A stretch of 64,000 nt of DNA, from positions 40,922,001-40,986,000 of the forward strand of contig CM119371.1 of NCBI GenBank assembly GCA_051294905.1, written 5' to 3'. A program made the translations under genes and the position numbers. This document shows, in pieces, positions 13,201 through 46,628 of this stretch. Source of the stretch: Botryllus schlosseri. Taxonomy: Eukaryota. Position 1 is the stretch's first letter. Each line of letters begins with the position of its first letter. The notes beneath the pieces were generated by a model that was not told the DNA's origin, made no database searches, and was given only the letters and a program-made list of their open reading frames with translations.

Positions 13201-16200
13201 CACACAAAAAAATTATTGCGAATTGTACTTTGAAGCAACATGATTGTTAAAAAATCGAATTTTCAAATTAATCTCTATTCCACAACGAAATCACAAAAAA
13301 AATGTCTTTCAATTTCGTAATTGGTTATAATAGTAGTTACGGTGAGCAGCATTGCAATTTATTTTATTGTACCTACAATTAAAAAATGAACAGCATTTGG
13401 AAATATTGGACAGTTCTGAGGGTATGCATTACAAATGTCAAAAAATTTGCTAATTTATAATGGAATGAGTCTGTACAGACGTTTGTCGTTCTCGAACATA
13501 TTAGGATTAACTTTGAATTTGATACGAAGTGAACGATTTTTGTTTTATTTCTTTCGTGAACTCTACTCTAAATTGAAAAAGAACTGTGCAGCTATAATTC
13601 TGATACTAATCTAATTGGGAAAAGCCAAAATTTTTTAGTTGATCAACTCTGCTACATATGGTCATCATGTAGTAACAGCTACACATTCATCAGTCAGAAT
13701 CGACCCACGCTGTTATCACAAAGGCCAATGTAATAATTTATGTATTGTAGAAACGGCACTGGCATCATATTCTTTGTGGCGTCATAAAAGGTACGTGTCT
13801 GAGTCTTCCACTTCATTCATACTTTCATAATTTGTGATGCTTGCTTAGACTTGAAGCCTAATATCCGATTCAGAATCGAATCACTCAATTTTGGCCAGCA
13901 CTAATTGTAGCACGGCAGAATTGAAATGAAAATGGGTTCCAGGTAGCATGGAGCATTATTAAATTCCTGTCTATTTACGAATTTTCCGAGTTGTTGACGG
14001 AATTTGTGAGAAAACAGATTAGCGTTATTGGCCCATAAGAAAAATGTAAACACCAACACAAAAGGGGCGATTATCGCGATTAAAATTCCCTCGCAGCATA
14101 GCGTAAACCGTTGCTCATTCAAGCGTGTTGTGATGAGCTTTTTTTCAATGAGATCGTGCTCGTGACATCACTATTGGCAAAATATCAACTCAAACGACAA
14201 GAAATAATCGCTAGGCCTGCTGTGTAGCAGGGTTTTAATGAATCGAGTCAGGTCTCGACTTGAGTCTCAATTTCTCGTCTACTCGAGTCATTTTCTCGAA
14301 ATTTAAAATTGACTTGACTCTAGTCAATTTCTGCATTGACCGAGTCATATGACTCAAGATATTCTATGTTATTTGGTTCAATTCACATCTATGAAAAAAG
14401 ACCCAAAAACCCGCTTGCACGAGAAAATCAGTATATTATGAATTCGAAATCATCCAATAGTTTCACAGAGGGGAATTGACTTGAACTCAATAATAAGCAG
14501 TGAACTCTATGACTTTGACTCGGGCTCGAGTCTCAACTTCATTACTCGGAGTCGCCCCATTACTTGCTGACTTGGACTCTGACTTGGCTCGGCGGTGAAT
14601 TGAAAATGACTCGACTTGACTCGAGTCAAACCTTTAAAACTCAAATTGACTTGTGACTCAGAACCTTGTGACTTGGCTACAACCCTGTCTTAACCATAAA
14701 CCCAACCCAAATACATTAATACATACATGCCAAGTTCCGTAGGCCTATATCACAATTCAATCTCATATTCATATTTGAATTTATTAATGCAATATCGATG
14801 TATCGCTTCATAATAGTAATAGGTATTGTGTTTCAAATGTCAAATTCACTGATTGCCTAATTCACCGCCATTGAAAAAATGTCAATCCATCTGTAAGTTC
14901 CTTGATAAAGTTTGAAATGTTAAAAGCGTTGTAATCCCGAACGCCGCTCTGAGTTAATATTACCACCCCTTGAATTATCGTGCATAAACACAACCTATTT
15001 CAAATACAAGTATTCATGAGAGATCATCTCTGGACTCGTGTGTATCAAAGTCTCAAAAACTGTTTTCGATGAAACACAGTCTTTCTGATCCAATTTGTGA
15101 ATCTGTGTTTCGAAATCACGAGATTTCATTGGATTAGCATCATTACAAGATGATCTGTGTATATTATTAGCATCCAGAATATTTAACGAGTCTGTACTTA
15201 AGATTGCAATCGCCAGAGAAAGTCAGCCTACAAAGTTGTGTCTAAATCATCCTATCTTTGATATTTCGTAAACAGACGGCATGAATTATAATTCATTTTG
15301 TTCAGTCTAATCGTGTCTAAACATGAATTTTGGACGGATGTCGCACCCTGAAGGCTATAATTAAGTGTGCCTTGATATAATATCGGGTTTGTTGTTCACG
15401 AATTCAATAGATGTCCAAACAAGTACCCCTGTGTTATGATTATAATCACCTGGAGTGACCTTTTCTGCCTCTTACGCTTGTGTGTTTTGATGCAATGCAA
15501 TATAGATTAACTAGATTTAAAAATGATAGGCTGATGGTGTATGTAATGTTCGTATTCCATTAGAGAAGAGACACAACCTTGTAAAAAAGCACACAATGAA
15601 ACTGCTTTATTCTAGTGACATGTATCCATGCTAGAATCTCGAGCCGGTGAGATAGCGTAATGGTGGAGCTTCCGGCTTCTTGATCGGTAGGTCGTGGGTT
15701 CGATCCCCGGCCGGGTCAGACTTAAGACCTGATTAGTAACAGTGGTATCCATGACTTCCAAACTTGGCGCTCAGCAAGGGTAGTGCAAGACTTAGGAAGC
15801 CTTACAAGGCTATATCTGCACCTTTCTTGTCCAGCGGCATATGCACATCATGCACTCATTGTGCGCATATGCACAGATCGAGTGTATGTATATCATGAGT
15901 CGATGTATATATATACCATAAAAACGCCAAGGTCAAAACTAGACAACGTGCTATGCTATGTTGGTGATCGTCAAAATTAATTGCACTTGAAATCTTGGTA
16001 AGGGATAGAATAACGCTGATTCTAACACTGAAATTATTGCGCGTACACCAAAAATTGGCCAGTAACGAATCAGATCTACGTTTTTGGAGTGCTCAATAAA
16101 TTTTGCCTCCTTTCTTATTGAATAGATTTCAATGTGATACTATTTATTTCTTTCACTTGTGAATTTGAAAAGAGGAAAGTAGTTTTAAAGTATGTTTGCA

Positions 16201-19200
16201 ACACGTTTACGAGTGAAATTGTCTCAACAACTGGGGTTAATAGCCCCTCTATCATGCTAACTGAATGTATGTGAATATGCATCTACTTTTCAAACTGATA
16301 ATTCATTGTACATCCACTCAAGTTTTTTTCGTCTGATCTCGATAAAATGCTTGAAATCTTGACCTTTTCTGTGTATAATTACGTATAATTATAAACCACA
16401 ACCCGGGTTCAAATCTCTGCTATTGAAATTGCAGTATTAGATTACCTAAGTTTCAGGCATATTTCTAGGTCATTATCATGCTCGAAGTTGGGAACCGTGC
16501 ACTTGACTACATATTTTTATGAAGAGAGTATTTTCCCAACCTCTCGTGAACTTGATATTTTTGAATTTGGCCTATCTCCAGACTGTAAAGTTTCTTCAGG
16601 AACGCGTTTTAGGATAACACTTCCGTTTGGCGTGGTTTATACCACGAGTAATCCACGCGCCGTAAAATGAAATCCTTTGTTCTTGCGATTTAGCAGGTAT
16701 AATTTCAAGATGGTGTTTATGTATACGCAGTTAAGTGTTTACAGATTATCTGCTGGATAAAAGCGTTGCTAATGACTTGTGAAGTAAAGGTGTTGTCATC
16801 CGCTTTTAGAATGGTAGTACATTACTAGTTGCTGACGATTACCCCTGATGAGTGTTAGCCGAAAATATTCAGGTTTATTTCAATATGAATATACTATCCA
16901 GCTGTATATTGAAGTTCTGTACCTCCAAGAAGCTCTTTGGAATGGTAAAAGTGAATTAATGTCTCGGCAATTGAAGTCTGATTTAAGCATTTAAATGAAA
17001 GGGACATAATTATCAGATTTGCAATGACTCGAGTCGTGATTTTTTGTAACTCGATTTGACTCGAGTCATTTTTTCGAATGCGTAAAATGAATTGACACAA
17101 GTCAATTCTTGTATTGACTTGACTTGTTCTGAAGTCATTGTGCATGACACGAACCAAGTCATATGACTCGAGACTAGGACGGCCAAAACAGACATTCCAT
17201 TGTAACTGGGAAGAATAGTAAAGTTACCACATTATTTCGTCTATCAGTCCGGATTGAACTGATAACTGAACAGTCAACATAATGACTCGGACTCGAGTCA
17301 AAACACTCGGACTCGACTCTCTACTCATTGACTTTGACTCGGACTTGACTCGGTGGTGAATTGAAAATGACTGGACTTGACTCGAGTCAAAACTATAAAT
17401 GTGAGATTGACTTGTGACTAGGAACCTTGTGACTTGGTTACATCCCTTATAATTACTTGTTAACAAGGTACACCTTCGTTAAAGATGTAGGTAGATTTTT
17501 GGCCGAAATTCGGAACACAAAAGTTTTGATTTGAAAGACACATTTTTTCTCATTTTCGGTGACCAATCATTTAAAAGATTGTTCTGTCTCAACATCAGGG
17601 ATGTAACCAAGTCGCAATGTTCTGAGTCACAAGTCAATTGGACTTGTATAGTTTTGACTAGGTCTAGAATCAAGTCGAGTCATTCTCAATTCGCCACCGA
17701 GACAAGTCCTATTCCAAGTCAGGGTCCGAGTCATAGTGTTATAACTCGAGTCCCGAGTCCAAGTCATTGTGTCTACTGTTCAGTTCCTAGTTCAAGTAAA
17801 GCTCAACTTACTTAAAAGTGAAACTATCGGGTGATATCGAAGGCCTCCAATTCATAATATACACATTTTCTCACTCTGAACATGTTTATTCAAATTGATC
17901 TAAGACATTTTATGGGTATTTTTTTCAAGTATCACTCGTGATACATGAGACTAAAGTCGACTCAATACAAAAATTGACTCAGGTAATTTGCCATTTTTGG
18001 GAAAATTCCTCGAGTTAAGTTGAGTCAACAAAGAATTATGGATCAAATCATTGCAATCCTGACCAACATACATGACATGTGTCGACTTTAAAAGACTATC
18101 AGAAAAAAAAGCATTTAAATACTTTCACCATTTATGAAAACTTCGTGAAACAATGATTCATGGTGCAGAAATTAAAAAGTAGTCGTCATAATATATTGGA
18201 AGTGGCATGTAATGAATAAATATCACCGAGCGTCAGATTTGGAAGAGATCCCAGATTAGCATGCATTAAGATATTACTGTTGCACACGAATGCTGTTATT
18301 GCAGTCTCAAATTCAACGCAATTGGTCAAAGTCTGTGTGCTATCTTCAGAATGGTATTATCATTTCGCATCATCTTAAGTTCGAGATAAATTGTCAATCA
18401 TTGCCTCGCAAAATCTGGTTTTCGCGTATATTTTTGAAGCGTTGAACTCGATCAAAAGATAATCCCATGAATATACTCGAGTTTGCCGGTAGTTCAAAAA
18501 AAGGACGTCCCTGCTTGTCAGTCAAAACGTCTCCTTCAGCCGACGTAAATATCGTGATGTCAATGTTTGTAGAGATTCGCGTCGCGTCATTGTTGAGATA
18601 TTTTATGCGCTGTGTTTTACACGTTGGAAATCCGGGATTAACGTTCTTAGATCGATCGCTGTGACGTACCTCAATTGTATAAGCTTTACCTAGCCTATAA
18701 TCTGCTGTTTATAAGCTGGATTTGTGGAACCTTCCGATGTGTCACAGCTATGAATAACTTTTTGTCATCAATCAAAGCTACTACAAAAATATTTATTGTG
18801 CTGCAACAGACTTGGACCACTAGATAATTCTAGTTATCTAATTAAACTAATCACAGCGAATTCCCAGTAATCTAGCTCTGATCTAATTTGCAAAATGTTT
18901 CATTGCTGTAATTTTAATTCTAATTTAATTTCTGGTTTTCCTGAAAATGCCACAGGAAAACTGTATAGCCCGAAAGGAGCCAAGCATGCTGTACATACAT
19001 TTGCTATTCTCATGCTCACGATAATAGGCGTTCAATATCAAAGTTCTCGCGAAATCTATAATTCTAGTCTAATTAGGAAAAAACTGTGTAGCTATAATTC
19101 TAATTGTAATCTAATTTGGAAAAAAAACGTGTAGCTATAATTCTAATTCTAGTTTAATTCGGAAAAAAAATGTGTAGGCCTAGCTATAATTCTAATTGTA

Positions 19201-22200
19201 TTCTAATTTGAAAAAAAAAACTGTGTAGCTGTAATTCTAATTCAGCAAAATATTGTAATTATAATTATAATTTTAATCGAATCCGGAAAAATCGTGTAGC
19301 GATAATTCTAATTCTAGTCTAATTCAGAAAAAAATAGTGTCGCAATAATTCTAATCTAATTCGGAAAAGACTGCATAGATATAATTCTAATTCTAGTCTT
19401 ATTCAGAAAAAAAACTGTGTAGCTATAATTCTAACTCTAATCAAATTCGGAAAAGACTGCATGGATATAGTTCTAATTCTAGTGTAATTCAGTAAAAAAA
19501 AAACTGTGCAGCTATAATTCTAATTCTAATCTAATTTGGAAAAATCTGTGTAGCTATAATTCTAATTCTAATCTAATTTTGGAATAAATCTGTGTAGCTA
19601 TAATTGTAATGCTAGACTAATTCAGCAAAAACTGTGTAGCTGTAATTCTAATCTAATTTGGAAACACTGTAAATTTTATAGTTGTCCAATCTGTGCTGTG
19701 ATTGTGGAACAGCACAACGAATTTTGACAGTCATTGTACTTGACATGGGCTTGCTACTCTTTTTAACGCTATAGGTCCTTTGAATATATCCGTAAACTAT
19801 TTCCTCTTAAAAGAAATTTGCAAGAAAGACCCTTGCTTATGTATTCTGGGAAAGAGAAATATCTCGTTATAAACCACATTTCATGGCATCGTGTTTACGC
19901 AAGGGATATGGATGCTAGCAAGCCGGCTTTAGATATTTAACCGGTGAATTCCTTTCTTAAGGTATGCTTTAGAACTTGAACTTTGAAACAATAAGTTTCC
20001 GTCAAGGTACAATCGTTTCCTGGAAAATGGGCTGAGAATTTGAAATTTTTGTTTACTGGCGTCTGAATACCGTGCTCTTTAGCGGGTATTCGGGGATGTG
20101 CTATTTTCTATTGCTATCAAGAATGTAAGGTTTAAATCTGAACGGGCACCACGCCCTAAATATGATGTGGTCTCAAATTTTAACCGACCGTGTGAAATAC
20201 ATTTTGGAAACGTCCATTTTATTCAGAAAGCAAAATGTGCAACTAGAGCTAGAATGAGAACCACTCACTCTACAAAATCTGTAACTAGAACTAGAATATT
20301 CACTTTTCAAAATCAGAAACTAGAAATAAAAAATTTTCGAAATGTGCCCCTTCGAATTCAACTTTGAAATCCAAATTCGATAGATAACGCCCCGAAAATT
20401 TCAAAACCCTACACAGCAAAAGCGGAATCACATGTAAGAGTCACATTTTTAACAGGTCAACACGTGGTGGCGCCAGTATGACGCTGCAAAGCATAAAGTC
20501 ATCCCGGAAATGAACGATCTTGCGCATTGGCTAAAGAGCAACATACCCGCCGACGTGGCCAAACCTTCAATAGTTCACGGAGATTTTTCAATCGGCAATA
20601 TCATGTTTCATCCGACAGAGGTAGTATGGAAGCTGTCAGAGACAGTAGCTGGTGTCTGCCACAACAACATGGGCATCACATGTCAAAATTTGTGGCTATG
20701 CCTTTATGGAAATACCTGGGCAAAATCGAGTACCTATCAGAATGGTTCGATTAGGCGTCGTTGTTAAAGATTATTTGCTATCTTTTTAACCATGCATTTC
20801 TCATTGCACTTTATGACAATGTTGCGGCCGATTACGTCTCCACAGATACATCATTTCAGTAACGTGCTTAGCTTTTTACTACGTATTTTGTATGCTGCGA
20901 TACAACTAATCAAGGTTTCAAGGCTTTTAAGGTGGAAAATAGTATCGTGGCTCAAATTTTCTTTGATAAATTAACTCTAATAAGTAGGGCGATTTTGATT
21001 TTGACTTAAAAAATCAGAGTTTTTACATTTTTCGACCGCAAAAACTTCATTTTGACCAAATTTTGACCTTGTGTATGTAAATTAGGTGTTTTATCACATA
21101 ATTTTAAAATTGCACTACTTATCTTCATTTCTGGTTGGAACTGTCTGTCCTTACGAAGCAGTTTGGCCTGAAAAAACTTTTTTGACTTGAAAACTGACCA
21201 ATTTTTACTATGAAAAAAAATTTTTTTTTTGACAAAATCTGAAGAATTCCAGTAGCTACATCACTCATTATGGTAGAAATAATCGAAATTTGTTGTAGTA
21301 CAACAACGAAATATACTTTCCTACAATCTCGGGTAGAAAATGTCTGTCCTTACTAAGTAGCTTACCAAGAAGCTAGAGAAGTTGAACGTACACTGCTTGC
21401 GACACACCGTGTTACTTCATTCTGACAATGTTGTTTACATCGCAATTTTTCATCATGCTCTTCATAATATAAGAACCAAAGCCCACGCACTCTAGCCTTA
21501 GTTACGATATTGCTGTAGCATATTGAGCATGTCACCATGTCAACCTGTTTGTTCATTTGAATGTTTATGATTCACAATGAGCAGACAACATGCCGTCTTG
21601 CCGGTAGGCCTATAATGTAGGCTGCAAGCTGTAAAATGTCAAATGATAAGTTTACCGACAGTGCAAACATCTACGATACAAACAGAATGCAGGTTGCAAA
21701 AAAAATTTGACTTTTTAAACAATTTTGACAATTTTTTGACCTAACGCTACAATTTTGACAAAATTTTGACTTCTTTTGACTTTTATTTCATTTCAGAACA
21801 AAGTCTTGTGCGTGCTCGACTGGGAACTGTCTACGCTTGGCGACCCGCTGGCCGATATCGCATACTTCTGTATGCCCTACTATCTACCGCAAGAACTTTT
21901 GCAAGCCAGCTATAGAATAGAGTAAGTTAGATACAAATCAATTCAATTTATTGCTAAAATTTTCATCATTTCAATACACCGACAGATAGCGATACAATGA
22001 AAAGATAGGAAGGTGTCAAAACGACTTGGAGTAGTCTTTGAAATCAGACACCCCCCTTGGCCTAGGCCATGTAAAAAGGAGGCATGGTTGTAATGACTCG
22101 AGATTTCCTGATGACTCGACTAGACTCGAGTCATTTTCTTAAAATACGGAAAGGACTCGACTCGAGTCAATCTGTGTATTGATTCGACTTGGACTCGAGT

Positions 22201-25200
22201 CATTGCGCATGGCTCAAACCAAGTCATATGACTTGAGACTCAGACGGCCAAGACCGACATTTCATTGTAATTTCGAAGAATAGTAAAGTAACCGCACTAT
22301 TGGGTTTTCGTCTATTGGCACTTGTACTTGAAAATGCGACCAGAAACTGCTAAAAGTGAGGAAAATTGGTATATTTTAAATACGAACCATGCGAAATCGC
22401 CAAACAGAGTTATAAAAATTGGTTTTGACAAGACTTTAACTGGAATCTGAGCAGTCAACACAATGACTTGGACTCGAGTCATAATACCATGACTCGGACT
22501 CGTCCCTCTGCTCGCTGACTTGGACTCGGACTTGACTCGGTGGTGAATTGAAAATGACTCGAGTCAAAACTGTAAAAGTTGAATTGACTTGTGACTCGGT
22601 TACAACCCCGATGCACTCTGAATAAAAAGTAGAAGAAGATATTATAAAAATATTATAAAAAAAGGTGGTATTGGTCGGAAGGCGAGATCGATATGTCAGG
22701 TCCAGTGAACTTGGGGGCTGACTTGTATTGATTCAGTAGAAATTGTTTGTATTTCGACTTGAATGAGGACATGATCGACGACTGTATGATAGCCTACTGT
22801 TCCACACTGCAGGTCTGGCATATTTGATAGAGCGATGATCTTTTACTCGCACCTTGTTGGTATAAAAATTACTTTTCTTCTTGTTCTTAGATAAGAATTA
22901 GCATTTAGGAATAGATTAGAATAAATTACTGCCAATTCAGTCCAATTAGACAACTTGAAATATCTAGTTGTCTAAGTCTGCTATGTCATTTCTACGTGCT
23001 GCGCCACTTAGCTAGCAGGAAACCACTTGATATATACAAGCCCTTCGCCTTGTTTCCAGCAAGGACCTTGGTGTAACCCGCAATACATACTCCCATATCA
23101 AAACAGCATAGCTGTAATATGACACCGCAAGGTACGAATTCAATTCTTCTAACAAAACTCTTCAAGTGAATACCAATTGGAATTTGATTCTGTAAAAAGC
23201 TCTTGGCTGCCCTCTAGAGTGGCTTACTATACCCTTTCCAGTTGTGGTTTATAATTATGGGTTTTGAAGAATTTCTTGGAGGCACAGAACTTCAATATAC
23301 AACTGAATATATATTAATATTGAAATGAACCCGAATATTTTCGGCTGACACTTGTCAGGGGTAATCGTCAGCAACTAGTAGAGAATTTAAAAGAACATTG
23401 TATGGCAACAATTGTATCACCAAACATGACCTGGCAGTTCGAAAATTTTTAATTTCTAAATGCAGTGCAAAACTTTCTTCTCTAATAGCAATACTTCGGA
23501 AAGTTCAGGCAACCTAACAATTTTACAAGGTAGCCAGTGAAATTTGAAATAACAGTATTTTCATCAGCCATAGTGTACAGTGCCTGGCATTTTTACGAAA
23601 TATTGTATGCAATATTTCAAATTCTTACGTTTCGTGACATTTTTAGAGACCTACTTATGCCATAATCGTTTGCGTGCAGACAACTTTGTCCATTTATTGG
23701 AAATTCATATTTATTCTAAAGATGACATTGTCTACCATCACGCAGTATTAATTTTCAAGTGGTTTAAGGATATTGGACTTGTTACAATCTCAATAGTGTG
23801 TCACTTTACAAGCGTTGTTGTTTATTGCAATATAAAATTCCGTGAAACAGAGGATATTGTCCACCGTCACGCAGGGTTAATTTTCAAGTGCGTTCAAGAC
23901 AATTAGACATGTTACAATCTCAATAATCCATAGCATCACCATGGTTGCTTGTACAGTAAATTAGACCAAGCCTTGTTTATGGAATACAAAAATAAATTGT
24001 GCGCTCACCCATTTGAATTCATGCTCGTATTTTGTGGTGGTGAATATGTGCTAAAATTATTCAAGAATTTGGTTTTCCACATTAATCTGTCTGCAGACAA
24101 GATTATGGTTTATTAATGTGTTTGGATGTTTACACTTGAAGGAAAAGCTTCAAGTTCAAAAGCTATTTCCGTGATAGACATTTTAGTATAGGCTACTTTA
24201 GCCGACCCCAGATTTAAGATTTTAATAAACATTGCAATCCGAGTTAATCAAAAGGTGTGCTGTAATGTGTGTGATTGACAAATTGTCGAGATTACACAGA
24301 TATTGTCTGAATGTTTTCACGTATTCACAATGCTACACAATCTTATGGTGTTTTTTAATGTCACTGAGAATTGCTTCAAATAAATGACGGAAATTGGCTA
24401 ATATTTTGACTAATTTCATTTGCAATTTCATGCTCAACTTGCCTTAGAAGTGTTATTACAAAATTTGCCTGAGGAAAGATATATTCTAAGTTTTTTTGCG
24501 GGCTGATTTAGCTCCACAACTGCGCATTTTTCTTCAAATGAGATTAGAATTGGAATTAAATCACAGAAACATTTCACAAATTAGATTAGGATTACATTAC
24601 CGGCATGTAACTCTAGATTAGTCTAATTGTTCTGCCTCTGTGTAAACGACATAATATTTTTATCAAGCCTTCGCGCAATCAATTTTAATGTGTTTGTCAA
24701 ATCATATTACATAATACTAGTGTGGCAATCAGCCTTATGGTGTTGTCCCTAAACTACGCATATACACACAAATTAATACCCTATGCATACGCAGATGATC
24801 GTACAGTCATAAATATTTAACCTTAAAATTCTAACTGACGTAATAGGGACCTAATCTGTGATTGAATATTTTGTGATTTGCGTAATGTTGTCATGTTTCC
24901 CCAAAATCAAAGCACTATCTTGACGTGAGGTTATGTTTGACTTGCTGTTTTTGGAAGTAATTAAACAGCTTGAGCAGTTGTACCAATCTGTCCCGATAGG
25001 AAATATGATTGGCAGCGTATTTTATTTCGAAAATATTTTCTATTGATTTTTTTTGTGTCTTCATAATGACCTGCTAGGTTCAATGTACTTTGGTGTGGGT
25101 GTGACATATGTTTTCTGTAAGGTATTGTAATTTTAAGAGTAAAAAAGAGTGAGTAATAATAATAGCAGATATGTATCATTTGTTGTGTCCAAGGCAGGGA

Positions 25201-28200
25201 TTTGTCTTGATATTTTTACTTGAAACCGTCAATTTTTCGATAATCTGGGTGAGAATACACAATGTCAGTTTGTTTTGACAGTAATTTTCACAGAGAATTT
25301 CTACCCAAAATTCCTGGACAACTCTGAAACACTCTTGGGTCAATATGTAATTCTAGTGGTTTAATCAGACTAATTAAAGTGAAACGCGGAAAAATAAGGG
25401 GTGAAAAGTTTTCATGCTCTAATCTAAACTAGAATCTAATATCTGTAAAATTTCTAGGTGTTAATCTGTGCTTTGAAGTATTCACATCTACTAGTGCTAC
25501 AATTTTTTTTTATGCGAGTAATATCAATTTCATATTTTTACGGTACTTATCTCTTCTTACTTGCAAATCAACGAATGTACTTTTATTAGCACATTGTCTA
25601 ACTGAATAAGTTGTTAACAAAACTTGACCTTGAAAGACTAGACACATCCTGATTCCAATCGTATGAAGCCAAGACATACTTCCACTTCTTATTTAGTTTG
25701 AGTACTGCGGTGCTTGGTTGGTGTTGTTAGAGTTATTGCTTGGAAGCCAAATGCCATGTCATAGGTGTAACATTGAGATACAGATAATTAATACATGACA
25801 TAACTCTTTGTGATGCAAATCAAAGAGAATAGAACCAAACTAGAAATAGTTTGTAGCAAGCTTTTTAAATCCCTATTTTCATTTTGCATAATACTTGATG
25901 AAAGCTGCTACCGTATATAAAATTCATTCAGACAGCTTAAAACATCATAATACTTAAATTATGGGTATTTAGGAAACTGTGAAAAAAGTTGCGAAAGTTG
26001 CAATAACTTGCCCTAGTGATCACAATTGTCTTTGAATTTGAGTTGAATCTGCGTAGATTTAGTATTCCACAGACCACTGATTTGAATTAAGACTTTTTTA
26101 CCATCACAGTCGTTACAGTTACTGTATTTTGATATGACGTGTTAACCGGACAGCAGCGCAAATAGAACTGTAGGAGAAATAGCTCCTTGTCACTTGAAAT
26201 CGATTTTACGCCAATTTCTCTCCGTGATGCCAAGTAGCTTAAGTAGGTCGGAGTATGTTGACTTAAGAGTGAGGTCAGAAAGATAAATCCAATCTCCTTT
26301 GAAATAAGGTCTTTGTACAGTGTTTCCAATTGTGTTACTCGAAGTTTTGAATAAATTTGAGTGGTATTACTTCACGCATTTCGAGTGCGATACATCCTTA
26401 CAATATACAGTGTTGTAGCCTAATTTCGTACACTATTAATAGGTTTTGGATCATTGGGAGGGGTTATCTTCAGTAAATTGTGTGAAGTAGGCCAACACCC
26501 AAGAGTTTGTCTCTCTAGAATTTTTTTCCTCGTTATTTAATTGAAGGCATTGGCAAAATCGAGTGAAAGCAGGGAATATAATGCCTCTATTTATTGATTT
26601 CATTCTGATTTAACTAGTGTGTTACCATGGCTACTGTCTTTGTTACAAGTAAAAAGTCCTTTGTAGGTTATATCGTCAATTTTTTCATAAAACAATTTTC
26701 TGATGGACAGATTCCTTCAACTATGCTGTTCCCATTATATCATTCTATAGTCCTACCACATTAACAAGGCAAACAGATTTGAGGTTGGGCAGAAAAATGC
26801 CAAAAACTATAGTTTCATAGTCTATGTCAGTTATGTGAATTCGTGTTTGTAAGGGCATACGACGCATACCACAATACTTTATATTATAAAACAACATTAC
26901 TGGAGCTCTTAGAGTGCAATATTAGCAGTGTAATCATGCACTTACCTCTAAGACATGGGTAACAGAGGGTTTTTTCATTGAAAGCCTCGTAATATTCAAA
27001 ATTTACTTTTCAAGGCACACATAATGGATTATTTATCTAGTAGTTGACCAGATGTGACATTACAAGACAAAATAATAACAAAATTCTTATTGTTGCTGGA
27101 TCCCATGGATAATTGGTTTTCGATGTCATTTAAATTCATATATGATGTACAAATTCTTTTTAAAAGTGTATTATTTCGCAATTATTATATTTTATTCACG
27201 ATGTTGCTAGTTGATTCATCATTTGGGATGAATTGGTGGTGTAATGAGCAAGAATTACTTAGTGTCTCATCTTAAGCGTGTCACAGTGTGTCTCATCTTA
27301 CCCTCAAATGGTGGTAAGTTAAGACATTTGAGCAAGGAATTTTGAGGGCCAAGAAATCCATAAGTATGTTGTTCAATATAACTAAAAACAGAGTCATGAA
27401 TAGTAGGGACCACAGGCTTTCCATTGGTACCAAAATTAATCCTCAGAAGACAACACTCTTTGAGTGGCGTTGAAATATCAGAAAAGTGTCTCATCTTGGC
27501 CTCCTCCCCCTATATTCATATTGAAATGAACCCAAATATTTTCGGCTGACACTCGTCAGGGGTAATCGTCAGCAGGTAGTACAGAATTGGAAAGAACATT
27601 GTATATCAACAGTCGTATCCCAAAATATGACGTCACCAGCAGAAATTTCAAATATGAGAGTGTTCAATGTACTATTTTTAGGTGGTACGCGAACTAAAAG
27701 ACTATTTATGGATTCCGAATCTTGACATATTTCAATCAATAGTTCAAAGAGATGTAGGCCTGCCGATAGATGACGTTTGAGATTATTGTTATTTTTGCTA
27801 TCCACTGTGAACACTTCAATAAAATTCTGGGTCAAAAGTTAACTGCTACTCGAGTCACCTTAAGATCTAATCATCCAGGTGCGTGTCCTTGAAAAGTGTG
27901 TGCGGTTTCGTGTGTTCCCCTTACTTGACATTGTGGCTAACCATCACGTGTAAAACTTTAGATAATAACAGCATAGAGGAATTATAATATCACTTAATAC
28001 CAGACTTTGGCAGCTAGCTAAATCTAGTTGTCTATTTAGACTGATTAAATAAATTGAAATGTCCGTAATCAAATTGTAATGTAATTTGTGAAATGCTTTA
28101 TTGCTCTAATTCTAATTATAATCTAGTTTGTGAAATGTTTCTATGCCCTCGTTTTGATTCAAATCTAATTTAATTTGGAAAAACCTGTCTAGCCATAACG

Positions 28201-31200
28201 CTAATCCTAGTGTAATTTGACAAAAACTTAAGCTATAATTCGTATTCCGATCCAATTTAGAATGTTGATTATTGCATTACCCACCTTCCCCGAATTTTTG
28301 TGCATTGAAAGAAGTTTATGGATGTTTATACATCCTTTACCAATGGAATTTTCGAGAGACCCTTGGCGGTACTGTACAATTGTATATATATTCATATTGA
28401 AATAAGCCTGCCAGTGTTAATCGTCAGCTACTGGTGGAGATTTCAAAACAGTTATATACCAGTGTATCAAAAAATCCATATAATCGAATTTTTAGTGCCG
28501 ATGACATCATATTTGGAAATACGATAGTTTATATCAATGTTCTTTCCAATTGTCTGCTAGTTACTGACGATTACTGCCCCAAAGATATTCGGTTTTATTT
28601 CAATATGAGTATATTATGCAATTGTACGCTGGTAACGAAATTTTCGCTCTTAACTTGTTGGCCATTCTGCATATTTGTAGAGTAATCAGGGGGCTGTCGG
28701 TAAAAATATATGTGATGCATTGTCTTGAAAACTACCTTTTCAAACTACCCACTAGTTCTACTTTGGTAGCGCCAGTGAATACTTGACCTCCTGTGACATA
28801 TTGTAGTATTAATGGTAATTTGCGAAAAACCAAGTATTTGAAATAGTATTGAAGATTTGTAGGGTGTTTTTTGTCTAAATGGAACCTTGTGTTCGAATTG
28901 AGACAGGTCAAAATCGAATACATATCCATTCCGCCTTTTTTGCTGTTAAAATTAGATTCTTTTCTGTTTACAGCCTGAATGAGATTATTTCGGAAGAAGA
29001 AATTGTGCGTCACTACTGCAGGGCGAGAGGAATCTCTTATCCGTTGCCCAATTTCGAGTTTTACAAGGCCCTCGCTTGCTTCAGACTGGCGTCAATCCTA
29101 CAAGTATGTGTTACTCTTGTTTACCGTTATTTGCGGACCGAAAATTTGTTTTATTTCAAAATTTTTTTTTTTTTAATTTATTGTGGTAATTTTTGTGAGC
29201 TATTCACTTCAAATTACGAATTCTCACTGCTAGGGAGTGTACAGAAGGTTTCTGCGTGGCAATTCGAGTCAAGATTCTGCAAAATTTGTCGAGACAACCA
29301 TTCAACCGATGGCGTCCGCTGGATTGAAAGTAGCATTAAGGTTTGTGAAACACACAGGTTTTCAAGTTATTGAATGCAGTACTGCTTGCCAAATGCTTTA
29401 GGTTTAGTGTAACAAGAGTCATTCAATTATAATATAAATCTGGTTTCGATATTGCCAAAAATGATGAAAAAAAGTCCTCAAGATAGCCCAAGTATAGCCA
29501 CAATATTGTATAATCACTAGGGTGATTTCTTTTGAACTATAATACGATAGATTTTGACCTGAAAAATGAAAAATCTGATATTTTTTCACATTAAAACTTC
29601 TTTTTTACCAAATTTTGACCTAACGTTTGTAAATTAGGTGTTATCCCACATAATGTTCGAATTGTACTACTTATCTTCATTTCTGGTTGGAACTGTCTGT
29701 CCGAACGAAGTGGTTTGGCCTGAAAAAACTTTTTTGACGAATATTTACATGAAAAAACTTTATTATAACTAAGTCTGGACCTATGAAGAATTCCAGTAGT
29801 TACATAACGCATTATGGCGGAAATATTTCAGTAGGATGCTGCGGTACCTTGAGCATAACACCATGTCAGCCTATTTGTTTCATTCGGCCATTTATGTTTC
29901 ACAATAAGCTGATAATCGACCGTCTACAACGGTAGGCCTATAAAGTAGGCTACAAGCTGTAAAATCTGTAATGATAAGTTTAACGACAGTGCAATCATCT
30001 ACGATACAAACAAAAAATTAGGATTTATTTCAATATGAATGTGCTATGCAATTGTATATTGAAGTTATGTACCTCCAAGCAGCTCTTAAAACTAGGACAA
30101 CGCAAAAAAACAATAGCTAGTTGAGTGTTCTCGAGTCGAGTCATTACAGCCCTGATACAAATATAACTAATGATTCATATCTGAAATCATTCGATTACAC
30201 AAAAAATGCTCATAACGACTTTATGCCGCATTGAAATATGTCACTCAGATCAGTTACTTTGACAAGATATTATGAAGATTAATGGATTTCGTAAATGGTC
30301 TCATTGCGTCACGATCACATCGATTGAAATTTCCGTGAAATGTATTGTTTTGAAATCAAATGTGCCGTGAACAGATCCTTTCTGGGAATGCATTGTTCGG
30401 TAACGATCCTTGTACGATAGTGTTCCGCGCTTCGTGAACAACTTCATTATCTGATATGATATCATCATAAATTATACTTTGAAAGATATGTTCGAAAATC
30501 TACGAATTTTCACTTCGATTGAATCTGCAAGAATCAGCTAACCCCAAATTTCCGTCTATGCACAAAAACTATACCTCGTTACCAGGACGATTGTTTTTAC
30601 CAAAAAAACGAAGGATTTTGTACATAAAAAACATAATTTTGACCTTGTGTGTGTAAATTAAGTGTTTTCGCACATCATGTTGTTAGGATTTGGTTGGAAC
30701 TGTCTATCCTTACGAAGTAGTTTGACATGAAAAAGCTTTTTGACACATAAACTGACGAATTTTCACATGAAAAAAACTTTATGTTAACGAAATCTGGACC
30801 TATGAAGAATTCCAGTAGTTACATCACCATTATGAGTGAAATAATTAAAAACTACTACACTAAAAGCTTTCCTATATCGCTGCTTTTAGTCTACTTAGTA
30901 AAACCATGCTGTTTTTTTCACGAATTCGCGTAGATATGCATTTTTGGCGATCATTTATGGGGTAAAATATGTGAACCTGTTGAAACTTGACTACTATGTC
31001 TACAAATTCCAGCCACAAGTAGAGTGTGCTGTGTTGTTTTGAAAGCTAATACCCATTACTTTGTTCCAGCTGATTCACAGATCGCTTTAGACACGGTTTT
31101 ACATCAAAGTATTTTGAAATTCTTGCGGTGTGGTTAATCGTGTTTTGGGAACTTGAGGCACGTGCTACTGCTTGTGGCATGACAGATTAGAATCTTTCTC

Positions 31201-34200
31201 TTTTGATTTTACCCCGATGACTCACAGGTATAGTAGCTGTATGGATCCACCCGTTAATTTATTGCTTTTATCAGGTCAGAGATCTGAAACAAGACTCTAC
31301 CCTGAAATTACCAATGAGGACGATTAACCTTATCAAGAAATCTAACAGACCGTGGTTAGCAAGGATTTTTGTTGGACATAGACTTGTACAAACTATACTA
31401 TCAAAATGTGCAACTAGAACTAGAAATACTCAGTTTTCATAACTCACGACTAGAATTAAAACTAGAACCAACGACCTTTTGAAAAATGCACAAATAACTA
31501 ACAAAAACACGACTAATTTGTTTCATTTAGGGAGCAAACCATTCATTTTTATTTTATCGGGATCGGGATCCACACTGTATATGAACATGAAATGGGACGG
31601 TTTTCAACCTCCAAAATCAACTCACTTTTCAAAATACGATGGGTTTTCGAGGCAATTTTTCATGATATTTTATACCTCTGACTGTGAATTTCAGATATCC
31701 AATAACATCATTTCATACACAATGTACGCTAGCTGCCTGATCTGTTGAAAAAATCCCCTGAAATCTTCAAATATTTCCGCGGTACAGGTGTAGGCTATAT
31801 CCGGTTTGTAATCCTTTGTTGTTTAAGACGGCAGTAACATTTATGCTACACACTGAGCTTTCTATGACATCACAGCATTTTGAATGCTCTTTCTTGGCTC
31901 GGTTAAGCCAACATTATCTCAGGACATAGCCCACTGTTTACACAAATATTCTTTCGCTAAGTTTCATGACGATATATTTACAAGCTCACGGTGCGCGGTA
32001 GCGCTAATGTCATGTATTATAGGTGCATTATGCTCTATTGTTAGTTTTAGTTGATACAGGGGACCTCGCTACTATAACAACTTCCTAGTTGGCTATTGTA
32101 GTCATCGGCTAGGTGAACAATACCATGCCCCGCTGTGGTCTGGTTAGTGTTGATATTGTAATTTTAAGTTCATATTGGATTTCACAATGGTCTTGTCAGG
32201 ACACTGGTTACTTTTAATCGTTGCCTTGGTAACGGTATTTTTCCAGTATTGAGATTTAGCTACGTCATACCTTTGGAGATGCTATGCGGTGGACTCTTTT
32301 GTCACATTTTTATTTGTGAACCCTCCGTTCCAAAGTGTGTTTGTAAACTAGTGCAGATGTAACCTGGCTTCAGAAGTCTGTTAGTTGACCAAATTCTGTT
32401 CAGAGAATATTAAGCTTCATTTAGCCTTCCTGCATGTAATACATCAAGCTGCACAAAATTATATCACATTCGCACGAGACACGGTAGTCTGATATAATAA
32501 ATGCTATCACAAAAAGGGTGTCTTTTGAACAAAGTATCTCCGCTTTTTCAGAGTACTCAAAAGTGTATTGCCTGCTAACTTTCACAGTTTAGATTTTTAT
32601 GAGTAGCGTTAGTTTTGAGTTTTGCATCACATCTGAATCAAGATTTAGCGTCATTCCTGGTATTTTTAGTGTTGTCTTAATACTATCGCCTGGCTGTGAA
32701 AGCTATAAAGGAGGACCAATTGCCAAAACGGAGGACATTTTCGATTTCTTGAAATACCAGGACAAATCTTCCTAAATGAGAACATATGATAATGATAACC
32801 TCAAGTTTGACATATCACAACACTGCAAAAAATCGACCATACCATTTTCAAATTAGCACATTGCCATGTAGTTGAACGACGAATATAGCTCCATTCTGCC
32901 AGCTGGTGGATATCATTTTATAATTCATAGTAGTGCATTTGAACATATTTGTTCCGCGTAAGGTTTATACACTGTGTCAATATGAATTCCATTGTTGGTT
33001 ATGCTACGATGGATAAATCTTTGCACACAGCTCAGTGGGTGAGTCTGCGGATTTTAGCATGGCTTAGGCATCAGTATCAATAAGTCTGTTCTGCGCAGTT
33101 TATCTGTAGGGTTGGGCAAAAACGAGGAGCTGAGTGGTATTAAACTTTGAGTCAAGTATTCGTTTCTCACTCGTGATGACATCACGACAGTACAAATGAT
33201 ATACATAGTTCAGATTTGTACCTTTTATGCGGCCACAGGGAATAATGACAGCTCTACATCCCATCAAAGATCATTTGTAGTTTTGGGACCATAGTTATTT
33301 CATGCTTAGGGTTTTCCACTACTTCAAAGATATGTCATTTCCAGTAACGTGCATAGCTTTGAACTACATGTTTCGTATGCCGTAATACGATTATTATGCC
33401 CATCCATAATTATCTGAAGTGATATGCGATTGTTATCACTTATCATGTAACGTATACCAGGTTCACCATGATTACAACAATATATCGGCGACAGTATCAG
33501 TAATGTCTGTCACAGATTGCCAAACAGTCGGTTTGTTACTAACGCATGACTAGATGAAATGGAGCAATATCAAGCAGGTTCTTGCAATACATCTATAGCC
33601 ATATAATTGCCGTTCACCAGGCTTGAAAATTTGAACCGCACATTTCTAACTGAGGCAGAATCGCTACAATGATGAGCCAATGTAGGTCTACTTCATTTTA
33701 TTTGACACAAATTTACATATGCAAACACTTCAATGAAGCAGGCCCTAATTAAGTTCTGATGGCACCTCGGCTTCCTATGCTTTTCAAATAATTGGTAGCA
33801 TAGGTGGTTGTAATATATAGAGACACTGTAAGTATAGAACTGCAGTATGTATATTGATATTGAAATACACTCGAGTTTATAGTGCAATGCACCCAAATTA
33901 TTATATATTCTATTCAGTTATGGGCAAATTATTGTTGTTTTACAGTTTTTTACGTAATCCTGCAGTGTTTGCAGTCTATTTTAGTGCTCAATCCTATTTT
34001 CTTATAGTGCTGGTAGCGGAAAAATGAAGCCCATGACACTGTCACCTAGCAAGAAGGGAGAGGCTTGTTTGGAAAAGGTCAAAGCCTTCATACAGAATCA
34101 TATAGCCCCATCGGAAAAGGTATGGTATTTCATCGCACAGGTATTATATATATTCTGATGCAACAGTGATTAAAAGGTAGAGGTCAGGGCTGTAATGACT

Positions 34201-37200
34201 TGAGTCGCAACTTTTCATTGACTTTACTTCGACTCATGTACTTAAAAAGGAAAAATTACTCAGCTTGACTGGGTCCCATTATGCATTGACTCGACTTAAA
34301 CCAGAGTCATTGCGCATGACTCTACCAATCCATATGACTCGACACATTCTATATCACTTATTCCAGCCTCGAATATCAGGACCATTTGAAAAATAAGCTC
34401 AGAATATGTTACAAGTAAGAAAAAATGAACATGAACTCGATACTGAACAGTAAACACTATGACTCAGACTAGGACTGCAGTCTTAAGACTAGGACTTGAG
34501 ACTCAGGCTTCCCTCGGTGGTGAATTGAAAATGACCCGACTTGAATCGAGTCAAAACTATAAAAGTCAAATTGACATGTGACTAGGAACCTTGTGACTTG
34601 ATTACAACCCTGGTAGAGGTTTGTCAAATATCCAGTTTTGCTGCTCAAGTGGGAGTACAAGTAACACCGTTGATTTCAAGAAGTACTCTCGAATACTCAA
34701 ATCAGATTGCCATGATTAATTTACATTTTCTCCTATTCAGGAATACTATGATTTCTACAAAATTGAAGGGAACAGATGGAAAATTTGCCCCATTGTGGAA
34801 GATTTGAAGGTGAGTGTGTGCAAAATATATCTCAGGAGAGAGAGAGTCTGTGTGTGCGTGTCGATTGTGTTGTTGATACAACTGACGAGAGTCAGTTTTG
34901 CACAAGAAGATTTTTCTGAAATTTAGCTCAACCCTCCCCATTTTTTCGAGCTTGGGACGGGCAGAGGCAATGGTGTAGACAGGGAGCAGAATTGGGAACC
35001 CTCTACCTCCTTTGCAAGATCAATTCTATCCCATTTTGAAACCCCTCATTGTTCTCTCGGAGAGAGTCATCTGCTTATCCCTTATTCTGAATGCATTGGC
35101 ATATTGTTCATATTGTTTCTTCGTTCCATTGTTTTACACCAGACCTTGTAATTTTTAATAGTAATCGCCCACTCCTGTTGTACATTGTCATAAGAACCTA
35201 AATCTTTATGATAAGTCATTTGTGATACTAGATTATGCCCCACATTCAGTCATTGATAGCGCACCGTGTATTCCAAAATGTAGTATTTTGTTACTTTCTG
35301 CCTCTGCTATCAGTTCCGGAATGATATTCTTCAAAATATCAACTGCACTCTCACAGAAGACCGCGGATTACATTTGCTATTCGGCTCTTAAGCCATATCT
35401 ATTATTTTCAAGAAAATCCTTACTATTGCCTCTGATTGAATACAGTTTCCGTCTAAGTCGTAACGGGCAATATCTATGATGGAATAAAACACAAAGTTCT
35501 GACCCACGTATAGTATCGATGTTATTCCTGCAGGCGAAAGCCAAGTCTGAAGGACTTTGGAACCTTTTTCTGCCGGAAATCAGCGGCTTGAGCAATGTTG
35601 ATTACGCTTACGTCGCCGAACAGCTGGGAAAATATCATTTCGCTCCGGAAGTCTTCAACTGCAGCGCACCAGGTTTGATGATAGGCCTATCTATATAAAT
35701 TTTACTAATCTATGACCATTGTGTTAAGACTTATACAAACTGCCAATCTAGTTATTTTATGGTCAACTATCTACTGTTTTTTGAGTAGTTTTAGTTCTAG
35801 TTGCGGATTTTGAAAGTGAGCAGTACTAGTTCTAGTTCTAATTGCGCGTTCGAAAAATGTTGAAAAACAACTAGAATACATATGTCGTCATTTAGCATGA
35901 ATCGTAATACCAGTGTTTTGTTGTGTGATATTCTTGTATCTATTGTTACCTCAGAGTCATAGTGCTACTAACAGTTGCATAGCCAGACGTTGGTTTTTGG
36001 GACGAAACCCCTCTCATTTCTAACTGGAAACCCTGCTTTTATCGTTATGCCGATTCCATCTTCAATATTTTATCTTCATTTTGTAATTTAGCAGGTTTTT
36101 TTGGCAGATCAAACTAGTGCAAATTGCTGCAGTTTCAAAATGCGACTAGAACTACCTACGGTGAAATTCGCAACTGGAACTAGAACGGATGAACTTTGAA
36201 AGTCCGCAACTAACTATAATAACTCATGATGCGAATTCATGAATTGCAAATGAGCTGAGAAATTATGGAAAGCTATTAAATGTCAAATCCGATGCAGTTT
36301 GTAAATAAAACCACGCAAATATCGCAGTCCCAGATACTATCATATAACCTATATCAATTTTTTCTATAAGATACTGGCAATATCGAAGTTTTGTATCGCT
36401 ATGGCGACGAGTATCAAAAGCAAAAATGGCTCACGCCATTACTGGAAGGAAAAATTCGATCCGCGTTTTGCATGACAGGTTTGTATCATTCTGTGTTTTA
36501 TTCAATATCCTGTATGTTGACATTTGATTGTTTCTACTTTTAGAACCAGCGGTAGCTTCAAGTGATGCGACCAACATGCAGTTATCGATGACACCCGATG
36601 GTGAAAGCTATATTGTTAACGGCAGAAAATGGTGGAGCAGTGGTAAGCTGGGCTGAGCATAATGATTCAAGTACTCGAATGTGGAAGGAGTATTAAATCT
36701 AATGACTCAAGTGATGAGGGGTAATTTTTTTCAAATACTTAAGTTGTACGCTCTTTGGTACTAAGAGTTAATTTATCAACGAGAATTATAGTTTCGATAC
36801 TATTTCCCTTTGAAAGTCTTATAACCTTGATTGGTCTTATTGCAGCAGGCGAACCAACAGCAGCATCACGTAGTGCGACGAAATAGGAAAGATTGGGAAA
36901 ATATCAAAGTGTCTTTAATGTGATGTAGAACCGGCATTCTATTTTTCACGGTGGCAGAACACGTATATATTCCTAAACTTTCAACGTCAGTGGTTCTCAA
37001 CCTTTTTGTCTTCGCAGATCCCCTTTGAACCGCCACAGTCCCCCTCCACAGTTTTAATTGACATCTGTCTTGTGTAAATACTAACTGTAGGCTAGTGATA
37101 AACAGCGACACGATGACTTTTCCTGAAAATAACACGGTATTATTTGTGAAGAAATTAGGAAGACTTGTGGTATTTCAAAGCGAATTCTGCAGCTGCATTT

Positions 37201-44212: not shown

Positions 44213-45111
44213 AAGAAACGAATCAGTCATTTACCAAATTTTACATGATCCTTGAAACTGTGCCGAATACTTTGAGTTCAATTGTTGTCTTCTGCAAATT
44301 TCTCAGTTCTATCTATCATTGCGAGATATGCGTGTTATCACACTATGAGCTTGTATGTGATTACCATAATCTTTTGGCCATCTCTTGCTGTCCGTGCAAC
44401 TGCAATTGCGTTACTCACGTTTTTAAAATGATCAACCCAAGTCTATGCAATGATAATTAATAATTCTTTCATCCGTTTTTACTTTTATGCGAATTTTCAA
44501 CATCGATTGTTCAACGTGCGTTCGTTTTGTGATAAGAATGCGTTCTATCGCGGTGGAAATGCATTGACGGTCGTGAAATGATAATGAATCGTCTCACGTA
44601 CCTAGATTGGATATCATCGATTAGTTTGAATGCAATTGTTCCAACTATGATGCCCGCACTCATTCGTCCTGAGCTCCTAACGCCCTCACGTGTTTCGAGC
44701 TCGCAATACAGGCTTTCGAAAGCGCAACAACAATGACCCAGAAAGCTGGAAAATCGCGTGACGCTATAATCTTTCGCATTCGCAATTCATGTCAGACGCA
44801 GTTCATCTGGCTAATGAGTCGGTTCAGCGCTAGCCTGTATATCAGTTCATTTTAATACTCGTTTCAAAACACGACAAGATATCAATCTAATGTAAATGTA
44901 GGAGGGAGTTGAAAGAACTTGGAGTAGACGTTTATTCCAACACCTACCTTCTAGCTCGTAAATATAATAGAATTGTACTGAATTGGAAGTAACGCAGCGA
45001 TTGACGAATAACAGATGAAGGGTGATGGAAATGAAGTGACATGGTGTTGGTAGGCGAGGTCGTTTTGTCGGTGTCCGGTCAATACCGAGAGAACCATTCG
45101 CGAGAATGAAC

Positions 45112-46004
45112 CAGTGTTGGGATCAAGTCACTACCTTCGAGTCATTTCGAGTCATTGCACATTTTGACTCGAGTCAAGTCAAGTCACTCGATTTTTGGAG
45201 GTGACTCGAGTCAAGTCAAGTCACATTTCAAGTCAAGTTGCCCTTTCGAAGTATGTATGGGGCATGGATACGTCATTGCAATTTGCTAGCTGTCTGAAAT
45301 ACAGTTCGAGTGGTCATTGATTCTGAACCGATGAACGAATATAGAGTTAAATATAAACGCAAGAAGGTGCTGTATCGGTCACATATGCGTAGAACTGGTA
45401 AACTACGTAATTGCATAGTCTCAGTTTAGAGTTACCAGCCAAAATAGAGAATAGAGAATCGGAATGATAATGATTCAATACATTGTAGCCTACCCAGTTA
45501 CAAATAGATATGATACTATTGGAGCCTGCGACAATGGTTGAGGACTACATAAACTATATTCGACTTGAATTTCAATAAAACAAGAGGTTTGGTTATGGTA
45601 AGAACAGATAACAGAAATAGACATTTTGCTATTCTATTACTTTACTGCTTGAGTTACGACAACGTATACTGTAAGCTTCTATCACTTCGTTTGCGGTCAA
45701 TTTATTTGTGAGAGAAACGCACGGTCATTGAATGATTGGTCGCTTTCACGGGTTACACAAGCGTTTCGCGAACAATCCGAACATATGCAAGATACTGTGA
45801 TTTTTATCGACACCGATTACTTGATGACTTGAAATTGACTCATGAATTTTGCTCCGAGTCACGAGTCAATCCACATTTCTGATACGCCGAGTCAAGTCAA
45901 GTCAAGTCATTTTAGCAAAGTGACTCGAGTCAAGTCAAGTCATGCGAAAAAGGTGACTCGAGTCTGACTCGAGTCAAGTCATGACTCGAGTCATCCCAAC
46001 ACTG
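45112..46004. mobile_element. hAT-type MITE family B
   Basis: TIR CAGTGTTGGGAT...ATCCCAACACTG with perfect 8-bp TSD GAATGAAC. Confidence 0.9.
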
Positions 46005-46069
46005 GAATGAACACCACCGAGAACGGAAATTACCGAGAGTGCAATGCAGGCATGTTACGTAGGCTCACC

Positions 46070-46628
46070 AGAGAGAGAGAGAGAGTCTTTTATTTTTCAT
46101 CAAACCAAAATACATAACACTCGGCAGTGGTGGTGGTACAGAAAAATATGCATGCACAGTATTCGGTATTAGATAGGAATGATCGATAAGACCGTGAGGG
46201 TCATCTAGTCTGATTACACCAGCATCAAACAGGTACGCTTGACTCTAAACAGTCTGGCTGTAAAAAAAAGTTACAGTAGTTAAAAAAATAAAATAGAAGA
46301 AAAATTAAACGATGGTAGCAAATGATCAATGAAGCAATGTCTGGGCGAGGTAGGGCAACAGTGTTAGTGTAACGATAAGAGGTGATCAAGTAGGGCTTTT
46401 TTGAATCTATCATAAGGCAATTCACGGATATGTGGTGGTAATGCATTCCAAATGATAGGTCCCGAGTAGTCGATAGATCTCTTAGTTAGGTTGCTATTGG
46501 GTGGGGGTAAGTAGATATTTCCCTTTGACGAGGATCTCGTGTAATTGGAATGGACATTTTTAGCAGGTATGAAAAAGTCATCAAACACAGGAGGCAGACT
46601 ATTGGAAAAATATTTGTGAACAACTTTT
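46070..46628 (-). mobile_element. 5'-truncated CR1/L2-group LINE (ORF2 C-terminus, 3' UTR and (CT)n tail)
   Basis: HKYFSNSLPPVFDDFF...HSNYTRSS...KRSIDYSGPIIWNALPPHIRELPYDRFKKALLDHLL*, then AATAAA and (CT)n. A second 3' tail lies at about 53275-53424 (+). Confidence 0.85.

Follow-up and report, generated by a model that had tools for sequence, protein, structure and literature searches.

A hammerhead motif from the terminal repeats of a Penelope-like element, probably left as an inert truncated insertion in Botryllus schlosseri

Gene and repeat content of the locus

The window, a 64-kb stretch of DNA from Botryllus schlosseri, harbors the exon-sized frames of a host gene on its plus strand. 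Five of the 48 frames scanned against Pfam gave a match, one of them to a zinc finger. The combination of APH and acyl-CoA dehydrogenase domains is an architecture which we take to be that of an ACAD10/11-like gene, whose frames are spread over more than 55 kb of repeat-rich introns. A BLAST search with the full-length Penelope-like element (PLE) described below recovered 14 pieces in the window. Since the APH and acyl-CoA dehydrogenase frames follow each other along the plus strand from 7415 to 63064, the pieces of the element's terminal repeat (pLTR) most likely lie in introns of this gene. The features are the following:

7415..63064, plus strand: exon-sized frames of the host gene in domain order (Pfam), with APH (7415 and 20453), Acyl-CoA_dh_N (61928) and Acyl-CoA_dh_M (62804)
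11801..11941: head-to-head inverted pair of decayed pLTR pieces with broken cores (11801-11878 minus, 11868-11941 plus; BLAST)
16823..16937, plus strand: pLTR piece with intact core boxes and the first stem I pair broken (BLAST)
23263..23430, minus strand: pLTR piece with G8>A (BLAST)
27511..27695, minus strand: focal insertion, a 5'-truncated PLE end of 185 bp (BLAST to positions 1988-2173 of the full copy L065, and junctions)
27517..27519, minus strand: start codon (ATG) of the 848-aa ORF of full-length copies, 14 nt past the predicted cut
27530..27563, minus strand: type I hammerhead motif (4-bp stem I, CUGACGA box, 1-bp stem II, GAAA, palindromic stem III half)
27545..27550, minus strand: predicted pseudoknot, 3' strand, made up of six loop II bases out of seven
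27568..27573, minus strand: predicted 6-bp pseudoknot, 5' strand, with its end 8 nt before C3
28375..28626: two internally deleted pLTR pieces in inverted orientation (28375 to about 28448 minus, 28484-28626 plus; BLAST)
30012..30091, plus strand: pLTR piece starting inside the GAAA box (BLAST)
38086..38367, plus strand: two direct pLTR pieces about 130 nt apart, GAAA box broken in both (BLAST)
40182..40435, minus strand: longest piece in the window, with 31 decayed codons of the endonuclease C-terminus, then pLTR, core broken (tblastn E 2.7e-5, blastn)
60978..61268: two pieces inverted head to head, the one at 60978-61083 (minus) with a broken core, that at 61082-61268 (plus) with an intact core and U17 (BLAST)
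62785..62907, plus strand: decayed pLTR piece, core broken, directly before an acyl-CoA dehydrogenase exon (BLAST, Pfam)

The 12 places named as copies of a dispersed repeat in the original prediction are all members of this family, and two further pieces had been missed (11868-11941 and 30012-30091, both plus strand). The copies it called mutant or deleted are so, with G8>A at 23329 (minus), internal deletions near 28410/28565, a broken GAAA box at both 38151 and 38281 (plus), and broken cores at 11830, 40190 and 60980 (minus) and 62836 (plus). The core boxes of the three copies described as intact (16831, 27530 and 61159) are so, but at 16831 the stem I pair by the cut is broken (C-A). The proposed repeat unit of 34-44 nt has to be abandoned, as the pieces measure 30-245 nt and derive from a longer element. 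Three inverted pairs of pieces are present in the window. A strict core pattern matches at three places (16845 plus, 27559 minus and 61173 plus) and nowhere in 300 base-shuffled windows; together with the reversed genome control, which gave no match, this rules out a chance origin of the motif. Against the curated covariance models of Rfam, neither the window (E<=5) nor any of six full elements (E<=10) gave a hammerhead match.

The window harbors several other repeats. A 627-bp near-perfect palindrome at 8459-9085 is MITE-like (309-nt arms, 94% identical, 9-nt spacer), and its Rfam match to MIR5048 was rejected as a hairpin artefact (68 bits versus a cut-off of 160). A second palindrome with 217-nt arms lies at 54621-55094. 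A C2H2 zinc-finger array at 49865-52114 (plus strand; 330-aa frame at 51122, piece at 49865) is apparently nested in a dehydrogenase intron on the same strand, and a 200-nt inverted pair (49162-49361/54237-54436, 95% identical, 4.9 kb apart) lies around the zinc-finger frames. A second abundant dispersed family with palindromic words of the type GACTCGAGTC occurs on both strands (3276-3811, 17047-17448, 22095-22608, 50383-50750, 58027-58545, 63359-63918 and others). AT-rich minisatellites with periods of 36-44 and 86-90 nt are common to distant sites (9466-9799, 19059-19657, 28072-28218 and 38368-38565).

The focal insertion

The focal insertion is 93% identical to L065, a young full copy, and comprises the last ~10 codons of the endonuclease domain, the stop, the pLTR and the first three codons of the ORF, so that just three element codons follow its ATG. 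The minus strand from 27573 to 27530 reads as originally described, with both boxes, the G10.1-C11.1 pair, the 7-nt loop, AAUAUU, the NUH site and stem I all present. The C3-A9 box occupies 27559-27553, G10.1 and C11.1 lie at 27552 and 27544 with 7 nt between them, and GAAA (27543-27540) is followed by the palindromic AAUAUU, U16.1 (27535) and H17 (27534), after which the cut is predicted; stem I pairs 27563-27560 with 27533-27530. The base at the cut site is U17, versus C17 in young copies. As C17 lies in a CpG, decay is the likely cause of the change to U17 in the copies at 27530 and 61159.

The insertion is antisense to the host acyl-CoA dehydrogenase gene, between exon frames, and the host pre-mRNA would therefore carry its complement. 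No intact partner on the same strand was found near it within the window. This truncated 185-bp insertion is likely inert, and the copy at 27511-27695 is very probably a passenger.

An autonomous Penelope-like element

At L065, units with a period of 2,692 bp are 99.9% identical to each other and carry an intact 848-aa ORF between two motifs; an inverted piece is followed by a truncated unit and then by further 2,692-bp units. The hammerhead lies in the pLTRs on both sides of the ORF, in the L065 structure as well as in the family representatives, and full ORFs of 845-851 aa are flanked by the motif on each side. In Pfam, the 848-aa ORF matches RVT_1 (E 7.8e-9) and, at its C-terminus, GIY-YIG (E 0.021 and 0.014, weak matches short of the curated cut-off), and a PDB search gave only weak matches to RT. 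EN+ PLEs are recognized by a CCHH motif with two cysteines between GIY and YIG, and by a DKG motif before the RT core (PMC8557442). The ORF harbors VVYEYRCHCDCGYVG and two downstream histidines, in an EN part aligned in seven representatives, and KPDKG as the DKG motif before the RT core. The CX2-5CxxC zinc finger of the RT-EN linker is absent from the seven aligned representatives, as in the Penelope/Poseidon clade. Partial tandems forming pLTRs, 5' truncation, an inverted 5' copy and a 30-40-bp tail, all hallmarks of EN+ PLEs, are present. The element is an EN+ Penelope-like element, assigned from its motifs to the Penelope/Poseidon clade; the original pointer to Penelope-like elements was the right answer, the copies belonging to an autonomous PLE.

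When one window copy was used to search the genome, 3,147 candidates emerged at first look, of which 40 were scored. Among the best 29 other loci (L002-L030, selected for similarity), 26 continue upstream into the GIY-YIG-type C-terminus of the ORF and 18 have a second copy on the opposite strand within 1.5 kb. Searching with the ORF N-terminus listed 127 places, many of which are tandem, stop-free frames of 850-880 codons. Scoring of 8,000 candidates yielded at least 814 relatives with E<=1e-50, almost none of which has a name. Proteins of sister families are 55-70% identical, and the motif lies at the same place in each.

Some loci show particular arrangements. L031 (G000:C12:23479500-23489000) and L066 (G000:C1:13417500-13427499) are head-to-head inverted element arrays, forming palindromes of 4.4 and 6.5 kb at 96-99.7% identity. 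Full ORFs at L075 and L082 lack the upstream motif and keep the downstream one. At L033:3-2476 the element has inserted next to a frame that, judged by eye, resembles the RNase H/integrase of LTR retroelements.

We also considered a non-autonomous retrozyme or satellite made of short tandem units with one hammerhead each. Two direct pieces lie 130 nt apart at 38086-38367, and animal retrozymes have been argued to derive from pLTRs (bioRxiv 10.64898/2026.07.22.740005). However, the window contains no tandem array of the repeat, by which a satellite or retrozyme is rejected and this explanation largely refuted there; the 5' ends of the copies are variable and reach into the ORF, whereas their 3' ends are fixed, and the tandem unit found is the whole coding element of 2,692 bp. 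This origin is hardly tenable, and the flagged motif is very probably the hammerhead motif of a PLE terminal repeat, left here as a likely inert 185-bp truncated insertion.

Genome-wide copies and their decay

The exact 34-nt motif occurs 3,206 times in the 496-Mb genome. Across 80 stretches of 10 kb at even spacing, taken as an unselected sample, the unit matched 29 times, and 27 of these matches overlap the core; within the 5' half of the ORF none goes past the first 100 nt. This corresponds to about one copy per 30 kb, on the order of 10^4 genome-wide by extrapolation. The core is kept in six of the 17 unselected copies that span the motif, and every helix in three. Divergence in these 17 copies amounts to 19/221 (8.6%) in the core versus 130/1,354 (9.6%) in the flanks (p=0.71), so no extra core conservation appears in the dispersed copies, although n=17 cannot exclude rare selected ones. 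As the core is no better kept than the flanks, selection acts in the transposing lineages and leaves no visible trace in the scattered copies. The original proposal of an independent, dispersed family of self-cleaving RNAs does not fit these copies, which are truncated ends of an autonomous retrotransposon with an often broken core (6/17 kept), unconserved relative to the flanks.

Covariation and a predicted pseudoknot

The focal copy and the family representatives share the core CUGANGA, GAAA, U16.1-H17 and G10.1-C11.1, or the U3-A8 variant. Family G (L079-L080) departs from this in its full-length copies, whose core box (UCGAUAA) carries C4 in place of U4. In 11 aligned sequences of about seven families, C3-G8, G10.1-C11.1 and the 6-bp helix are paired in 97.7% of 88 cells, which count related sequences (about seven lineages) and not independent events. 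Four of the six pseudoknot pairs change on both sides, as does C3-G8 (to U3-A8); none of 500 shuffles reaches the covariation score, and slid controls are paired at 23-49%. Stems I and III are 100% paired in six sequences of families A-D, those with a 4-nt insert (the aligner misregistered the other five), and four of their seven pairs change on both sides. The stem III palindrome switches from AAUAUU to AAGCUU across families, and in families E, F and G the stem III insert measures 5-6 nt and is an imperfect palindrome.

A pattern that leaves loop II free matches 1,033 times in the genome and once in the control. Among 20 out-of-sample loci, picked for loop diversity from the first 100 listed, 14 pair at least five of the six bases upstream, including seven that pair all six, with new pair types, and six pair only three or four bases. 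On permuting loops among these loci, the mean was reached in 2 of 10,000 trials. Covariation thus supports a predicted fold comprising stem I, the stem III palindrome, C3-G8/U3-A8 and the 6-bp pseudoknot. The minimal type I hammerhead motif with palindromic stem III, as originally predicted, is backed across sister families. Not noticed in that prediction were the pseudoknot, the ORF and the start codon that follows the predicted cut.

Nested folding gives the ribozyme no advantage, either in a young copy (z -1.6) or in the focal one (z -0.1). Since the structure would be a pseudoknotted dimer, nested minimum-energy folding is not expected to recover it. A competing hairpin that buries the core is possible in the focal family (-5.4 versus -7.4 kcal/mol for the pseudoknot helix).

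Cut site, copy ends and RNA reads

In eight of eight family representatives the long ORF begins at the AUG nearest downstream of the predicted cut, at a distance of 9-24 nt. Almost all unselected copies (24/25) end at least 10 nt beyond the cut, most of them in two groups, +21 to +38 (nine copies) and +56 to +74 (12 copies). An end within 3 nt of the cut occurs in no match of the selected set (56 matches, in which four loci are counted twice) and in only one of the 25 unselected copies, and the cut site was therefore rejected as an insertion boundary. Because copies end past the cut and not at it, we infer that the template is continuous across this site. Such continuity would also be given by a ligated circle, as in the proposal of Cervera and de la Pena that cut ends are re-ligated to a circle, here of 2.7 kb, from which rolling-circle reverse transcription makes the arrays, and arrays of at least three near-identical units do occur. 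However, an uncut tandem transcript explains the same facts, and a ribozyme-dead lizard Poseidon RNA inserted equally well in vitro (PMC11167929). We therefore consider the circle unlikely and retain the uncut tandem transcript as template.

Four raw RNA runs (3-6% of each) were aligned to one unit. Depth reaches about 240-990 per strand class over the pLTR, on both strands, versus about 0-5 over most of the ORF, and most reads continue from the pLTR into unrelated sequence. No pile-up of read starts or ends and no drop in depth was seen at the cut in these runs, whose reads are mostly passive fragments of both strands. The reads reflect passive transcription of fragments and are uninformative on cleavage. 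The abundance of pLTR RNA could nevertheless suggest that dispersed copies are working ribozymes, stand-alone or adopted by the host, that cut host pre-mRNAs. The genome indeed holds thousands of exact motif copies, and the sense intronic copy at 61082-61268 keeps its core, stem I and five of six pseudoknot pairs. This is very improbable, as the core is kept in so few copies and no better than its flanks, the reads come from both strands without a pile-up at their ends, the focal copy is antisense to the host gene with no same-strand intact partner near it in the window, and a single minimal motif of S. mansoni did not cleave (PMC4209133). Truncated ends of a retrotransposon remain the preferred explanation for the dispersed copies.

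Two other candidate functions of the region were rejected. A splice acceptor before the pseudoknot (pyrimidine run plus AG, cf. the Drosophila intron) is not common to families B-G, and no such joint was found among the listed 15 of 29. Removal of upstream AUGs by the cut is not a general rule, two of the eight representatives having no AUG in the 140 nt before it.

A possible role in the transposition cycle

In the mechanism that we propose, a tandem transcript of full-length elements would carry at least two motifs, each of which would fold into stem I, a one-pair stem II and the 6-bp pseudoknot that keeps these two stems together. Two motifs would then dimerize by pairing their palindromic stem III halves, probably helped by the element's protein, as the AAUAUU duplex contributes no more than -0.2 kcal/mol. 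In the RNA produced by cleavage after C17, the first AUG would lie 14 nt from the 5' end and be that of the ORF. Reverse transcription would proceed on RNA uncut at this site and, judging from the copy ends, begin internally at two places, about 30-40 and 65-75 nt beyond the cut, which may give the truncated copy, its inverted partner and the 'tail'. In full-length tandem transcripts the motif is probably a working ribozyme, dependent on dimerization and probably on protein.

The motif might instead be kept as a protein-binding or translation-start structure, cleavage being incidental. Its position just before the AUG is fixed, no reads end at the cut here (a weak test on four RNA runs), and in the lizard element insertion in vitro does not require cleavage, reads ending at the cut being absent there too (PMC11167929). 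Against this, catalytic positions are invariant, and the tertiary pair C3-G8 changes to U3-A8 across families whose proteins are 55-70% identical, as selection on an active fold predicts. We regard a purely structural role as improbable and favour the working ribozyme.

Whether or not cleavage serves translation is a separate matter. Hammerhead cleavage promotes cap-independent translation in RNA viruses (PMC13725137), and the ribozyme cut may define the 5' end of the message, a possibility to which we give serious but not majority weight. More doubtful is a broader proposal, in which PLE hammerheads would not be minimal: a pseudoknot at fixed distance would replace stem II and make an efficient dimer, the cut 9-24 nt before the start codon would license translation of each unit, and uncut RNA would be the template for reverse transcription. 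The lizard element, which cuts inside its own ORF, speaks against this proposal, as does the S. mansoni motif, in which 5' shortening made no clear difference (supplement of PMC4209133). If true, the proposal would assign a function to PLE hammerheads, with seven natural variants in one genome as a test set. The role of these ribozymes is still called unclear (PMC8557442), and the elements described here make the translation-start idea directly testable. Their value lies in the set they form, a single genome holding several sister families that were active recently and have intact ORFs, a covarying predicted pseudoknot and a predicted cut just before the start codon.

Comparison with known systems

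The find is in one respect an ordinary one, as hammerheads of Penelope pLTRs, with solo copies in the thousands, were already published in 2014. Cervera and de la Pena (2014; PMC4209133) reported minimal hammerheads in both pLTRs of metazoan PLEs, thousands of solo or opposite-strand copies and U3-A8 variants, with no activity as monomers and low activity as dimers. The motif described here resembles them in being of type I with a stem I of 4-5 bp, G10.1-C11.1, a palindromic stem III remnant, a place in both pLTRs and a U3-A8 variant. It differs from the S. mansoni motifs of the same paper, which have a helix II of 7-8 bp, by its one-pair stem II and a loop II predicted to pair upstream of stem I. 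PLE motifs usually lack the tertiary interactions, according to a review (PMC6155905). The word pseudoknot is absent from the main text of PMC4209133 and from PMC11167929, and refers to a frameshift in PMC8557442, figures aside; in the literature examined the structure is thus not described for PLEs, which does not establish its absence from print, and Lunse 2017 may describe it.

The closest relative in organization is Poseidon of Anolis carolinensis (Frangieh et al. 2024; PMC11167929), with RT plus GIY-YIG at the C-terminus, tandem arrays and two copy-end positions in the start of the ORF. The spacing of copy ends is 30-40 nt there and about 35-40 nt here, and in both cases RNA coverage of the pLTR is high, with no reads ending at the cut. 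In vitro, the tail of Poseidon is set by two internal start sites of reverse transcription, the template is mainly unprocessed RNA, and the hammerhead cuts only with protein added. In Poseidon the cut falls 26 nt inside the ORF and reverse transcription begins 111-118 nt into it, whereas here the predicted cut precedes the AUG by 14 nt and the copy ends fall about 20 and 55 nt inside the ORF.

The predicted fold resembles that of hammerheads described in 2011 (PMC3088659), where a stem II of one pair is combined with a 6-bp pseudoknot between stems I and II and C3-G8 covaries to U3-A8; cleavage is fast there, and U3-A8 is an active covariant. The example tested there is a metagenomic type II hammerhead with a real stem III (kobs >1.2 per min), unlike the PLE motif, which is of type I and would form stem III only with a partner. 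According to a review (PMC6765202), Lunse, Weinberg and Breaker (2017) reported PLE hammerheads with a very short palindromic stem III and dimer cleavage, with which the present motif shares the association with PLEs and the palindrome. Finally, non-LTR retrozymes and newt satellite 2 likewise carry type I hammerheads with a palindromic stem III that act as dimers, but they are short non-coding tandem units, whereas the motif of B. schlosseri belongs to an autonomous element of 2.7 kb.
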